From Candidatus Helarchaeota archaeon (GTDB lineage: Archaea; Asgardarchaeota; Lokiarchaeia; Helarchaeales; RDOG01), in NCBI GenBank assembly GCA_029838215.1, contig JALGVI010000022.1:1-39632 (forward strand): a DNA stretch of 39,632 nt, given 5' to 3'. Both the position numbers and the translations under genes were made by a program. Position 1 is the first letter of the stretch. Every line of letters begins with the position of its first letter. Below are positions 1 through 6,441 of the stretch, piece by piece. The notes under the pieces were generated by a model. It worked only from the letters and a program-made list of their open reading frames with translations, was not told the DNA's origin and did no database searches.

Positions 1-2
1 AA

Positions 3-221
3 TGTCGTGTAATCGCCGAAAAGAAACCAGATATAACCGATTCCAAAGCAGAGAAATAATATCCCCCAATCCAATTCGATTATGGACGGCACGCCTTTTC
101 TCCTGTTGTTTATATATTTCACGAAGAAGAAGACAGCTATTTCAAGGAAGACCGCCATGATTATCAATTCTAATGAGATCAAGATCTCTTGGAATGGTCC
201 CGTTATCGGATAGACTACCAT
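3..221 (-). CDS. Membrane protein, truncated by window edge (probable paralogue-type 7TM protein)
   Basis: Not in the ORF track. ATG at 221 on the minus strand, open to the window edge: MVVYPITGPFQEILISLELIIMAVFLEIAVFFFVKYINNRRKGVPSIIELDWGILFLCFGIGYIWFLFGDYTT. Two hydrophobic helices; starts 4 bp after the stop of the 7TM-longin gene. Confidence 0.75.
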   Translation of the reverse strand, partial: MVVYPITGPFQEILISLELIIMAVFLEIAVFFFVKYINNRRKGVPSIIELDWGILFLCFGIGYIWFLFGDYTT

Positions 222-225
222 GGTA

Positions 226-1323
226 TCACATTTCTATTGTTATTAAATTCTTAATGATCATCTCGGTTGGTTGGAAGAATTCGGAGCGAGATTTCATGAT
301 TTCTGCTGCGTCGTATTCTTCCAAATAATCCTTGAAATAGGTTTCAAATTTGGACGTGATCTCTTTCAACACGTATCGTGCATTTAATAAGTTCTTTTTG
401 GTAACCATTGCAACGATGATTTTTTCCCCATTTTCGATTAGAATGAGATGTTTTTCCAGATTAATGACATCTATGTTTTCTTTTGATTCTGTAATTTCAT
501 TTAACATCCTTATCATGCCCGAAATGCCGCCCGTGAAAAGGTCTTCGCTTTTTATTTCGGCTTCCAAGAAATCCTTATGGTATAACCCGATATTCCTTAC
601 CTTGTCGATGACGTGAACGGAAACAAGGTTTTTCACCCATTGTAATTCTAAAGAGAATGTATTACCTCTAAAACCAAAAAACATCAGAAAGATTCCTATG
701 AATGTCAGGATTTGAGATGAAAGCAGGATGTAATACGGAAATGAAAAATACGCCTGAATGAAAATGTAGCGATTGCCCGAAGAGAAAAAGAGACCCGTAT
801 AAAAAAGCAGGATGCCCAGCAGTGCGACCTTTAACTTCTGCTTGATTTCCCCGAATGTATTGAACGTGAAATAGATTGTGGAGGAAATACAGGGACTCAA
901 GAATAACGCATGAAAAACATTCAAGGTGACCAAATTCATCGGAGTGGGCCACGGAATTAGCGCCATGACTACCGAAATTGTAAATGTCAGCGTTATAGTA
1001 TAGTGCGTTTTAAAGCTTTTCCTGAAAGCATGTTCCAAATTAATATAGAAGATAAGACCACCAACGCCTCTCACGAGGATGACCGTGATGATGAGGAGTG
1101 AAAACAACTCAATGGAAAGAAAATGAAACTTGTAATAAGTCGAGATGAAATGACTTATTGCAAACGAAATGAAATACAAACCATAACTCAGAATGATGAC
1201 ATTTCCTGCTTGCTTTCTCCGTTGCGCATTCCATTGAATCAAGAATATCATGCCCAATTGAAAGATGAAAACAGAAATCATGTAACCGAGACCGATCAAA
1301 ACGCCAATTTCTAGGTCATTCAA
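226..1323 (-). CDS. 7-TM membrane protein with C-terminal longin-like domain
   Basis: About seven hydrophobic segments in aa 1-220. The soluble C-terminus has a longin-like pattern (SVHVIDKVRNIGLYHKDF...DLFTGGISGMIRMLNEI...ILIENGEKIIVAMVT...LKEITSKFETYF). Confidence 0.7.
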   Translation of the reverse strand: MNDLEIGVLIGLGYMISVFIFQLGMIFLIQWNAQRRKQAGNVIILSYGLYFISFAISHFISTYYKFHFLSIELFSLLIITVILVRGVGGLIFYINLEHAFRKSFKTHYTITLTFTISVVMALIPWPTPMNLVTLNVFHALFLSPCISSTIYFTFNTFGEIKQKLKVALLGILLFYTGLFFSSGNRYIFIQAYFSFPYYILLSSQILTFIGIFLMFFGFRGNTFSLELQWVKNLVSVHVIDKVRNIGLYHKDFLEAEIKSEDLFTGGISGMIRMLNEITESKENIDVINLEKHLILIENGEKIIVAMVTKKNLLNARYVLKEITSKFETYFKDYLEEYDAAEIMKSRSEFFQPTEMIIKNLITIEM

Positions 1324-1367
1324 TTAGGCACACCCAATACATCTTATCATTCACCATCCGGTCGTCT

Positions 1368-1910
1368 TCAGGTGACAAGCGATTTCCGAAAGATCGTATA
1401 TATTGTTGTCTTGAAGATCTTGTGGTTAAATTCGGGCGGAACCGTGTTCTTAACCATTTCTATTAGCCTGTCAGCCTGCTCACGTGAAAAGTTCTCAAGC
1501 CTTTCTATATCGGGATCGTATTTGTGCAAGAAAACTGAGAGATTGATTTTTGCATTTTTCTTTTTTAATGCATTTATGATTTTTTGCAAATAATCCAAAG
1601 CCACGTCATAGCGTTCTTTGTCCTGAACGTCGATGACGAATAGAATCTTGTCAACGCCTTCCATGAATTTGTCTAATTCTTCCAAATATGACTTGCGGTA
1701 TTTTTCTTGCCCACCAAAATCCCAAATATTGAAAAGCGTGTTTCGATCTTCGAAATTTATAATTTTCAAGCCAGGAGTGGGTTTTAATGAGTAATATGAT
1801 AATAAATTAGTATTACGTTCAAGACTAAGTCTAATGGACGTTTTTCCGCTATTATCAAGACCCATTATCACGATCTTGGCTTCTTTTTTATCATGTGTCA
1901 TTTTACTCAT
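1368..1910 (-). CDS. Small GTPase, Rag/Gtr-like (Arf/Rag-related), G-domain only
   Basis: G1 GLDNSGKTS, G2 PTPG, G3 WDFGGQ, G4 HKYD (HKxD is Rag-type), G5 TTIY. No C-terminal roadblock domain (180 aa). Confidence 0.85.
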   Translation of the reverse strand: MSKMTHDKKEAKIVIMGLDNSGKTSIRLSLERNTNLLSYYSLKPTPGLKIINFEDRNTLFNIWDFGGQEKYRKSYLEELDKFMEGVDKILFVIDVQDKERYDVALDYLQKIINALKKKNAKINLSVFLHKYDPDIERLENFSREQADRLIEMVKNTVPPEFNHKIFKTTIYTIFRKSLVT

Positions 1911-1957
1911 GTAGAACCCGCCTCCATCTATCCTACAAGCCCGATATCAAACAGCAC

Positions 1958-2350
1958 TTAGTATAGAGTATCAATGACATCCAATGCAGATAACTCATCT
2001 ATCTTCTCTCGATGCCTTTGCGACAGAAAAGAGCTAATTGCAGCCAGTATGGTGAAGATTCTGGGATCTCGAATCTTGTAAAACTTCCTTGCACCTACTT
2101 TTCGCACGGAGATGAGATCCGCCCCTGTTAGTGTTTTTAATTGCTGGGAGATTGTTGATTGGCTCTTATTCAATGCAATTTGTATCTCGTTCGCCATTTT
2201 TTCGCCGTGTTTTAAATATTCTAAAATTTCTAGTCTAGTGAAATCCGCTAGAACCTTGAGAAAATCAACCAAATTTGAAATCAACTCTTGCACTTTTGAT
2301 TCACGACCTGAAAATTTTTGCTCGTTCAATATCATTTTAGCTAATAACAC
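1958..2350 (-). CDS. ArsR/SmtB-family transcriptional regulator
   Basis: FLKVLADFTRLEILEYLKHGEKMANEIQIALNKSQSTISQQLKTL...RKVGARKFY winged-HTH pattern. The start may be ATG at 2335. Confidence 0.9.
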   Translation of the reverse strand: MLLAKMILNEQKFSGRESKVQELISNLVDFLKVLADFTRLEILEYLKHGEKMANEIQIALNKSQSTISQQLKTLTGADLISVRKVGARKFYKIRDPRIFTILAAISSFLSQRHREKIDELSALDVIDTLY

Positions 2351-4228: not shown

Positions 4229-5272
4229 GTGATTATAATGACCGAAGATTTGATAGTAGGCATAATTTATTCACAATTTGACGAGATCTACGGTCCTACA
4301 CCCGTTTCTTGGTATCCACCTGACATGAGTAAAGAATTGAGGAATCTCGTTAGCTTGAAATCAATCAACATGTTAACGGGAGAGCACGGATTGGTTCCGG
4401 AATCACTTGCCTTTCTCCCATTCCCTTCGTTTGCAATGGGAGGGTTGATAAAATCCATAGAACTTAAAGATGAAACAAAAAGAGGAGGCTCCATTGATAG
4501 TTCAATTACGATTCTCTTTAAAGAAGCACACGATCCCATTTTCTACAAGTATTTCAAGAACTTCGAGTCCCGCGTGAATGAAGCCGCAGAAAAAATCGTC
4601 GGTTTTGAGAGATCAAATATCAAAAAAAGATTCATCCAAGAGGAATTGGAGAAGCTTCATGAAGACATCATCGGATATTTAAAAGAAATGAAAGATGCAG
4701 AACTCGGAACGTTAGAAGAGAATGCATTTCCTAAAGGTCAGGAGTTTTCCACGTCAGATCGGACATATAGTTATAAGATCATTGTTTGTGGAGATCCCGG
4801 TGTCGGGAAGACTTCTCTAATCTTGCGGTTTACGAATAGAGCATTTCGGAAGACATATCTGCCCACAATGGGAGTGAACATCAGCGAAAAGAGAATTCGA
4901 ATAGAAAACGCCGTAATTAATTTCATATTATGGGATTTGGCAGGACAGACAAAATTTCAGACAATTCGGAAACATTTTTATCAAGGAGCGAATGGTTTGT
5001 TACTCGTATTTGACCTGACAAGACCAATGACGTTCAAAAACATCACTAACTGGCACGACGACATCAAAAAATTCAGTAGTTTAAAAATCAAAGGTTTCAT
5101 TTTGGGAAATAAGTGTGATTTGACGGATTTAAGAGAAGTATCGAAAGAAGAAATCGAAAAAATGGCGGAAAAATTAAATCTTAATTACATTGAAACATCG
5201 GCTCGGACTGGAGAGAAAGTCGATGATGCCTTTCATGAGCTGGGTGAGATCTTGCTCAAGACGAGGTCATGA
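4229..5272 (+). CDS. uDENN/longin-like domain fused to Rab-like small GTPase (paralogue 1)
   Basis: N-terminal IIYSQFDEIYGPTPVSWYP (FxxxxGP motif). C-terminal GDPGVGKTS, YLPTMG, WDLAGQ, NKCD, ETSA. Likely start ATG 4238. Confidence 0.85.
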   Translation: MIIMTEDLIVGIIYSQFDEIYGPTPVSWYPPDMSKELRNLVSLKSINMLTGEHGLVPESLAFLPFPSFAMGGLIKSIELKDETKRGGSIDSSITILFKEAHDPIFYKYFKNFESRVNEAAEKIVGFERSNIKKRFIQEELEKLHEDIIGYLKEMKDAELGTLEENAFPKGQEFSTSDRTYSYKIIVCGDPGVGKTSLILRFTNRAFRKTYLPTMGVNISEKRIRIENAVINFILWDLAGQTKFQTIRKHFYQGANGLLLVFDLTRPMTFKNITNWHDDIKKFSSLKIKGFILGNKCDLTDLREVSKEEIEKMAEKLNLNYIETSARTGEKVDDAFHELGEILLKTRS

Positions 5273-5379: not shown

Positions 5380-6441
5380 GTGGTGATGACGGAAAAAGGG
5401 ATCATTTATGGAATCATCCATGCACAATTTAATAACAAACTCGGACCGATTCCAATAGCATGGACACCTGCGGATTTAGCAGATAACATTAAAGGTCCGA
5501 CAAGTTTTAAATCCATTAATTTATTGCTTTCAGAAGGCGAATCAATAATACCGGGTTCTCTTGCGATCATTCCTTTTCCATCCTTGAACCTAAAAGGTCT
5601 CGTCCGATGCTTCAAAGTCAAGGATGAAAATGCCATTTCGGGTTTTAGAGAATCATCCATCACCATAATTTTTAAAGAAGAGCATGATCCGATTTTCTAC
5701 AAGTATATCAGAAATTTTGAGCCGAAATTTGACAATTTAATCGCTGAATTAGAGAATGTTTCGGATGATGACATTGAAAAAGGAATTTTAGTAGAAAAAA
5801 TCACCGAATTTTATTACGATTTGAATTTCATGCTTGATGAACTCAGGGAAGCAGAAATATCTTTTAAAAAAACAGATGAATTTCCTGAAACAGAAGAAGA
5901 TGAAGACATTAAGAAATATACATTCAAGATAATCGTTGTTGGAGATGTTGCGGTCGGCAAGACTTCAATTATATTGCGGTTTACGGACAATGCTTTTAGA
6001 AAAACCTATTTACCGACAATGGGCGTGAATATAAGCGAAAAAGTAATTAGGAGAAATGGCACGAATGCCAAGCTGACATTGTGGGATCTAGCCGGTCAGA
6101 CAAAGTTTCAAATCATGAGAAAGCATTTTTATCAGGGCGCAGACGGTAAGTTGCTAGTATTCGATTTAACTCGACCGAAATCTTTTAAAAGCATGGTTGA
6201 CTGGCATAAAGATATAAAAAAGCATTGTGACCAAGTGGTTCTCGGTCTTCTCGTTGGAAATAAATCAGACTTGGAAGATGAAAGACGCATTTCCAATGAA
6301 GAAATATTCAAGCTTTCAAGTAGGCTAGATCTCGAATATGTCGAAACATCAGCTCTGACGGGAGAGAACATAGACAAGGCATTCTATGCTTTGAGCGAAA
6401 AACTTATTGCCATTGCTGATGAGAAGAAAGACAATTCGTGA
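5380..6441 (+). CDS. uDENN/longin-like domain fused to Rab-like small GTPase (paralogue 2)
   Basis: IIHAQFNNKLGPIPIAWTP; GDVAVGKTS, YLPTMG, WDLAGQ, NKSD, ETSA. Shares AFRKTYLPTMGVNISEK, LWDLAGQTKFQ, RKHFYQGA and HDPIFYKY with paralogue 1. Confidence 0.85.
   Translation: MVMTEKGIIYGIIHAQFNNKLGPIPIAWTPADLADNIKGPTSFKSINLLLSEGESIIPGSLAIIPFPSLNLKGLVRCFKVKDENAISGFRESSITIIFKEEHDPIFYKYIRNFEPKFDNLIAELENVSDDDIEKGILVEKITEFYYDLNFMLDELREAEISFKKTDEFPETEEDEDIKKYTFKIIVVGDVAVGKTSIILRFTDNAFRKTYLPTMGVNISEKVIRRNGTNAKLTLWDLAGQTKFQIMRKHFYQGADGKLLVFDLTRPKSFKSMVDWHKDIKKHCDQVVLGLLVGNKSDLEDERRISNEEIFKLSSRLDLEYVETSALTGENIDKAFYALSEKLIAIADEKKDNS

Follow-up and report, generated by a model that had tools for sequence, protein, structure and literature searches.

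The Rag/Gtr GTPases carry as their signature a G4 motif HKxD, instead of NKxD, and a G5 motif T-S/T-I-W/Y. In the SLC38A9-Ragulator-Rag system, a multi-pass membrane protein conveys a signal to Rag, SLC38A9 being an 11-helix transporter that acts via its N-terminal tail. Longin and roadblock domains make up the platforms of TRAPP (Bet5-Trs23), Mon1-Ccz1, Fuzzy-Inturned, SRX/SR-beta, LAMTOR2/3 and MglB, and the known platforms gain access to membranes through the lipidated LAMTOR1 (Ragulator), through the membrane helix of SR-beta, or peripherally. Small GTPases and longin/roadblock proteins are encoded by the dozen in Asgard genomes. Their genes are reported to lie mostly outside operons and conserved neighbourhoods (PMC10933270; bioRxiv 10.1101/2020.10.19.343400), and this makes it difficult to pair an Asgard GTPase with its regulator. 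Fusions of NPRL2-like longins to two-component domains have also been described (bioRxiv 10.1101/2020.10.19.343400). Here, we analysed a stretch of 39,632 nucleotides (hereafter the window, positions 1-39,632, starting at base 1 of contig JALGVI010000022.1) from a 3.6-Mb Asgard genome bin, Candidatus Helarchaeota archaeon (GCA_029838215.1), and in it a string of four genes encoding an ArsR-type regulator, a short Rag-like GTPase and two paralogous proteins that join a seven-helix membrane (7TM) domain to a longin domain (7TM-longin). The conserved units are the ArsR-GTPase pair (module A) and the 7TM-longin tandem pair (module B), each on its own. We lean towards the view that the locus is a junction of these two Asgard signalling modules, at which the 7TM-longin pair serves as a platform and possibly switches the GTPase.

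All four genes are encoded on the minus strand, arranged head to tail in the order ArsR (1958-2350), GTPase (1368-1910), 7TM-longin (226-1323) and cut paralogue (3-221), with gaps of 47, 44 and 4 bp; the co-orientation and spacing reported in a first-pass annotation match the open reading frame (ORF) coordinates exactly. As the window begins at the first base of the contig, the contig end truncates the fourth gene, and its remaining 73 codons, previously noted as the start of another membrane protein, fit the N-terminus of the same 7TM-longin family (family hidden Markov model (HMM), E 2e-9). A site scan found neither terminator-like sites nor T-tracts in the gaps of the string, the genes of which may be co-transcribed. 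A scan for sigma-70 promoters, a model irrelevant to archaea, returned fewer matches than shuffled sequences.

The 180-aa GTPase has all its motifs intact, namely G1 GLDNSGKTS, G3 WDFGGQ, G4 HKYD and G5 TTIY, and H129, K130 and D132 are invariant among 48 homologues; the Rag-type G domain with HKxD and TTIY proposed at first pass is thus found in the translation. In Pfam, the protein matches Gtr1_RagA (PF04670; E 4e-24, 85.8 bits against a cut-off of 22) over residues 12-171 and profile positions 1-161, and Arf (PF00025; E 6e-23, 81.7 bits against 22.3) over residues 2-133 only. The best relative by both sequence and structure is LokiRagO (PDB 8yl2), the closest solved structure, with a sequence-search E of 1e-24, a Foldseek E of 2e-15 at 34% identity, and a structural-alignment Z-score (Z) of 21.5; Gtr1 and RagD (Z 17.9) and Arl2 (18.2) follow, Arl2 and Arf6 (Z 17-18) being tied with the former behind LokiRagO, and a grouping with canonical Arf proteins is therefore not what emerges. 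The window GTPase thus resembles LokiRagO and the Rag/Gtr proteins in its identity to 8yl2, its HKxD G4, its T-T/S-I-Y/W G5 and its score above the Gtr1_RagA cut-off, but differs from Rag/Gtr in its Arf-like P-loop (GLDxxGKT) and in the lack of a roadblock domain. Its structural model (predicted local distance difference test score, pLDDT, 87.5) ends after beta6, without an alpha5 helix or any extra domain, the C-terminus falling 12 residues past G5; homologues measure 165-220 aa. "Roadblock-less Rag-like" is hence a fair description, although in the strict sense the protein stands outside the Rag family, since the defining C-terminal roadblock domain is absent, and a Rag-type dimer is impossible for the same reason.

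The N-terminus of the GTPase, MSKMTHDKKEAK, is polar and has neither Gly2 nor an amphipathic helix, so that these Arf hallmarks are missing along with the NKxD form of G4. The protein also contains no cysteine. Judging from these sequence features, the GTPase would need a protein partner to reach the membrane. In a tree built from Asgard sequences only, the short GTPases form a single clade (support 99/95), apart from the long Rag-like GTPases with fused domains found in this genome, and the window GTPase sits among the ArsR-led members of that clade.

The association with ArsR is a stable one. Among the 29 best GTPase loci from other genomes, an ArsR gene lies directly 5' on the same strand in 23, two others are cut at that point, and three have soluble longin genes in its place. 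ArsR is also found upstream of a short GTPase at loci L007, L008, L010 and L088, and in three assemblies beyond the 29 loci the ArsR-GTPase pair is followed by unrelated genes. A related arrangement occurs in Lokiarchaeia, as a cassette of ArsR, short GTPase, MASE3/PAS kinase and a receiver protein (receiver-X), of which the first two genes are orthologous to those of the window (46-60% identity for the GTPase, 50-54% for ArsR). In the sister family f4, the next same-strand gene is a homologous large ORF at 13 of 18 ArsR-led loci; it encodes a MASE3-PAS-HisKA-HATPase histidine kinase of 726-775 aa (Pfam, two loci tested), and all 13 extended loci continue with receiver-X, which bears an output domain of ~175 aa. 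This output domain has a WDDKxGP motif at its start and an invariant arginine; it found no match in Pfam, PDB sequence profiles or Atlas features, and profile comparison with the window longin family gave 0.1%. Unlike this cassette, the window has the 7TM-longin pair instead of kinase and receiver, and the receiver-X orthologue of this genome (E 1e-93 or lower) lies on another contig, C83, beside long Rag-like GTPases.

Two other variants of the surroundings of module A were seen. A divergent Lrp/AsnC-type regulator (170-174 aa) lies 5' of the ArsR-GTPase-kinase-receiver cassette at both f4 loci examined, L073 and L074 (L074:447-959). A minority of ArsR-GTPase pairs (L047, L059 and L060) have, in place of the kinase, a gene that starts 134-300 bp further downstream and encodes a conserved protein of 293-304 aa (mutual identity 40%).

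The ArsR label of the first gene is well founded, both Pfam HTH_5 (E 1e-10, 41.6 bits against 22) and NCBIfam ArsR/SmtB NF033788 (72.5 bits against 55) scoring above their cut-offs for this winged-helix regulator. Because its orthologues 5' of the orthologous GTPases are 111 aa long, translation likely starts at the ATG at 2335. Metal sensing by ArsR/SmtB proteins relies on a cysteine or histidine site, either the alpha3 CxC or alpha5. The 130-aa translation of the window gene has zero cysteines and only two histidines, and the protein is therefore not an obvious metal sensor. On its 5' side, a repeat search identified a near-palindromic 16/17-mer with the core GTTATATAAC, present in two copies 84 bp apart (2372-2388 and 2456-2472). 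The 16-mer occurs at only these two sites in the 3.6-Mb genome, with up to two mismatches allowed, and the same palindrome lies 5' of the orthologous ArsR genes at L007, L008, L010, L045 and L049. Copy 1 lies across a TATA-like element situated ~40-50 bp ahead of the likely ArsR start. The palindrome is thus a candidate ArsR operator, for which autorepression would be the simplest reading. At L010 (~2770-2830), four tandem copies of the half-site ATAACGAT adjoin the palindrome, 5' of the orthologous ArsR, which suggests that several regulator dimers bind there.

The third gene encodes a 365-aa protein, for which AlphaFold2 gave a model of high confidence (pLDDT 91.7, predicted template modelling score 0.88, 60 homologues). 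Seven long membrane helices (residues 2-218) are followed by a beta-beta-alpha-beta-beta-beta-alpha domain at 233-362, the membrane domain (aa 1-222) being encoded by 658-1323 and the longin domain (aa 228-365) by 229-642. The secondary structure elements follow the longin topology, with strands at 233-240 and 245-251, a helix at 260-278, strands at 286-289, 292-298 and 302-308, and helices at 313-336 and 351-362. Residues 225-365 found no match to Pfam Longin, Fuz_longin_1 or Robl_LC7. All of the top 50 Foldseek matches of the tail in the PDB are longin or roadblock proteins, and whole-domain structural alignment over residues 232-365 retrieved Fuzzy (Z 13.3), Sec22 (12.2), Trs23 (12.1), the AP-4 core chain (11.8) and the SRX domain of SR-alpha (11.4), the first four with 118-127 aligned residues and root-mean-square deviations (rmsd) of 2.9-3.5. 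Roadblock domains aligned at Z 9-11 and over residues 228-332 only. What had been called a longin-like tail is thus a true longin fold, and the same domain is present in ~60 ORFs of this genome.

The membrane domain is less easily placed. It matches no Pfam or NCBIfam family; a comparison by hhalign with MASE3 (PF17159), the sensor domain of the kinases that fill this slot in relatives, gave a weak 15% over 95 columns. Its fold matches are an adhesion G-protein-coupled receptor (GPCR; Z 11.0), the ceramidase ACER3 (10.3) and cytochrome b561 (10.1), at rmsd 4-5, and they fall below the Z of ~13 that helical bundles attain by arrangement alone. No ligand-binding or receptor signature is evident in this domain, and the term "receptor-like" used at first pass would appear to reflect the seven-helix topology only, the GPCR matches of the model lying within noise. 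All close homologues share E97. Helices 1, 3 and 5 are each followed by a basic loop, from which pattern the N-terminus is predicted to be outside and the longin domain in the cytoplasm.

The 7TM-longin family comprises 261 cluster representatives, and 140 of 301 Asgard genomes have matches to it at an E of 1e-10 or below, some of these matches being the longin domain alone in larger proteins. As far as sampled, it is restricted to Asgard archaea, and it also takes in two ESM Atlas clusters of "hypothetical proteins", from Thorarchaeota and Promethearchaeota. We found no description of the family in the literature searched, which does not show it to be unpublished. At all related loci, a position-1 gene is followed by a position-2 paralogue. 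The tree separates the two positions into clades (support 99 and 91) that contain the same genomes with similar branching, and this mirroring points to an ancient tandem duplication with fixed order. In the window, position 1 is represented by the complete gene and position 2 by the cut one. Such a conserved paralogue pair is what would be expected of a heterodimer like those of the longin/roadblock platforms mentioned above, which the locus also resembles in its longin fold (Z 11-13) and in the frequency of neighbouring GTPase genes. Of 15 7TM-longin pairs in family f4, 11 have a Ras-like GTPase no more than 1.5 kb away, in three arrangements and against a genome background of 7.4%, a count that overstates independence since the loci are related.

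Three of the Ras-like GTPase genes that adjoin 7TM-longin pairs (L017:3027-3449, L019:675-1097 and L038:2770-3192) are unusual in that the P-loop is encoded in frame upstream of the first ATG/GTG/TTG, no canonical start codon being found after the preceding stop. Their sequences would be compatible with either a non-canonical start codon or an N-terminal truncation. In all three, the catalytic Q of G3 is replaced by E or D (DFGGE, DFVGD).

Soluble longin genes (126-168 aa) or larger longin-containing proteins directly flank short GTPases at eight loci in five genomes (L002 and L003 in this genome, L046, L057, L071, L087, L089 and L090). The flanking longins carry the domain of the window tail (HMM E 1e-11 to 1e-30), and the soluble ones have sub-threshold Pfam matches to Longin, Fuz_longin_1 and Robl_LC7 (E 4e-4 to 0.1). 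The GTPases concerned belong either to the subclade that is sister to the main ArsR-led clade or to the paralogues of this genome, the tree placement of which is uncertain. The proposal that the GTPase receives its longin partner in trans therefore stands for the short GTPase family, in which the arrangement recurs beside sister paralogues; it does not hold as a trait of the ArsR-led branch. The locus and its relatives provide candidate pairs, namely the short roadblock-less GTPase with soluble longins, the same type of GTPase with ArsR, and the two conserved 7TM-longin paralogues.

In the reading that we favour, the cysteine-free regulator of module A would probably repress its own promoter via the palindrome that overlaps the TATA element, and the G domain of the same module, which has no membrane anchor, either lost its roadblock dimerisation tail or never possessed one. 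In module B, the longin domains of the two paralogues would pair as a heterodimer at the inner face of the membrane, and this heterodimer would constitute a docking or regulatory platform (guanine nucleotide exchange factor, GTPase-activating protein or tether) for a small GTPase, by analogy with the longin/roadblock dimers of TRAPP, Mon1-Ccz1, Ragulator, SR-alpha/SR-beta and MglB. Unlike in the solved longin platforms, the longin of the window, as known from genes and models, is covalently fused to a seven-helix membrane domain. Should the pair bind a GTPase, it would constitute a longin platform integral to the membrane and without a solved counterpart. The 7TM-longin tails could show how GTPase switches of these archaea attach to membranes without a lipid anchor. 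Because module B lies 44 bp 3' of module A, in the slot taken by kinase and receiver in relatives, the short GTPase may be the one that is recruited or switched by the 7TM-longin pair, although we rather doubt that the pair is directly coupled to this ArsR-led GTPase.

Several observations weigh against such a coupling. The four-gene order is not conserved, contrary to what a dedicated unit would lead one to expect: none of the 29 related GTPase loci has a 7TM-longin gene on its 3' side, and the nearest 7TM-longin orthologues (L004, L005 and L014/L091, 40-44% identity) have no ArsR-GTPase 5' of them. One further genome of the order, G297, was sampled; it encodes five short GTPases and, apart from these, six 7TM-longin family members. 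Among all genomes sampled, the union of the four genes is seen in this one only. Where a GTPase adjoins module B elsewhere, it is Ras-like and not of the Rag-like type of the window. The longin tail lacks a GP motif, and only 11 of the 16 close homologues share the arginine of its beta1-beta2 loop, so that no catalytic signature can be named. Finally, a TATA-like element, AATATATA (1390-1397, minus strand), formed by the codons of the G5 TTIY, lies in the last GTPase codons ~70 bp 5' of the 7TM-longin start, where it could act as an independent internal promoter.

These points give substance to an explanation by chance rearrangement, in which the 7TM-longin pair serves a Ras-like GTPase whereas the ArsR-led GTPase functions together with the kinase, receiver and longin encoded on contig C83. 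Besides the Ras-like neighbours of the f4 pairs, two Ras-like GTPases follow a four-gene array at L005. On C83 (L076:1446-7525), a minus-strand string encodes a soluble PAS histidine kinase (358 aa), receiver-X (307 aa), a longin (168 aa), a Rag-like GTPase (406 aa), an N-domain fused to an Arf-like GTPase (321 aa) and a second Rag-like GTPase (416 aa), and, judged by its gene content, would seem to be a second cluster of phosphorelay, longin and GTPase genes. With 77 GTPase and 60 longin ORFs in this genome, and a GTPase ORF within 1.5 kb of 7.4% of its ORFs of at least 150 aa, adjacency to a GTPase is by itself unremarkable, some 7% of genes having such a neighbour by chance. However, the 44-bp gap between GTPase and 7TM-longin, which is higher in G+C than the AT-rich promoters 5' of position-1 genes elsewhere, is tighter than would be expected of unrelated units, and the short GTPase family otherwise shows a strong association with longin neighbours. 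We regard chance rearrangement as a serious competitor, if not the reading we would choose.

Somewhat doubtful, in our opinion, is the model of the first-pass annotation, namely a dedicated operon under ArsR control in which a 7TM receptor signals through its own longin tail to a roadblock-less Rag-like GTPase. It accords with the common strand, the short gaps without terminator-like sites, and the confirmation of both the longin fold and the Rag-like G domain. The f4 loci also lend it a rationale, as the slot after ArsR-GTPase is filled there by a multi-pass MASE3 kinase with its receiver, for which the 7TM-longin pair would be a one-component substitute. The gene order, however, recurs in no other sampled genome, and the membrane domain provides no receptor or ligand signature, its fold matches remaining in the noise.

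A bolder extension, which we consider unlikely, would make the 7TM-longin pair a one-component receptor whose membrane domain senses a signal, whose longin heterodimer loads, unloads or tethers the anchor-less GTPase, and whose GTPase in turn controls ArsR. If true, the locus would contain a full route that leads from the membrane through the GTPase to transcription and is functionally interchangeable with the relay of kinase and receiver in sister lineages, and would be an archaeal counterpart of eukaryotic membrane-anchored Rag control. The likeness to SLC38A9 would be one of concept only, as there is no homology and SLC38A9 uses no longin domain.

It appears improbable that the 7TM-longin proteins are unconnected with GTPases and that their longin is a dimerisation or regulatory module of a transporter, an enzyme or a membrane-shaping protein. 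Longins do act without GTPases in SNAREs and in adaptor sigma/mu subunits, which are among the best fold matches, the tail has no catalytic or GP motif, and at many loci of family f10, which lies outside the class, the stretch of 1.5 kb around the 7TM-longin gene contains no GTPase. However, GTPase neighbours are enriched in f4 (11/15 against ~7%), and the protein bears no signature of a transporter or an enzyme, matching neither Pfam nor NCBIfam families and having no His/Asp cluster in its conserved columns.

Divergently from ArsR, the window encodes two tandem fusions on the plus strand (4229-5272 and 5380-6441; 347 and 353 aa; Pfam Ras, 1e-49), each joining an N-domain of ~175 aa with an initial FxxxxGPxP motif to a Ras-like GTPase. 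In the 347-aa fusion, this GP-motif domain shows a weak profile match (42%, E 3e-4) to the output domain of receiver-X. Both fusions are 50-56% identical to a single 352-aa gene that lies divergently 5' of ArsR-GTPase at L008/L009, and the neighbourhood conserved there thus extends beyond the ArsR-GTPase pair.

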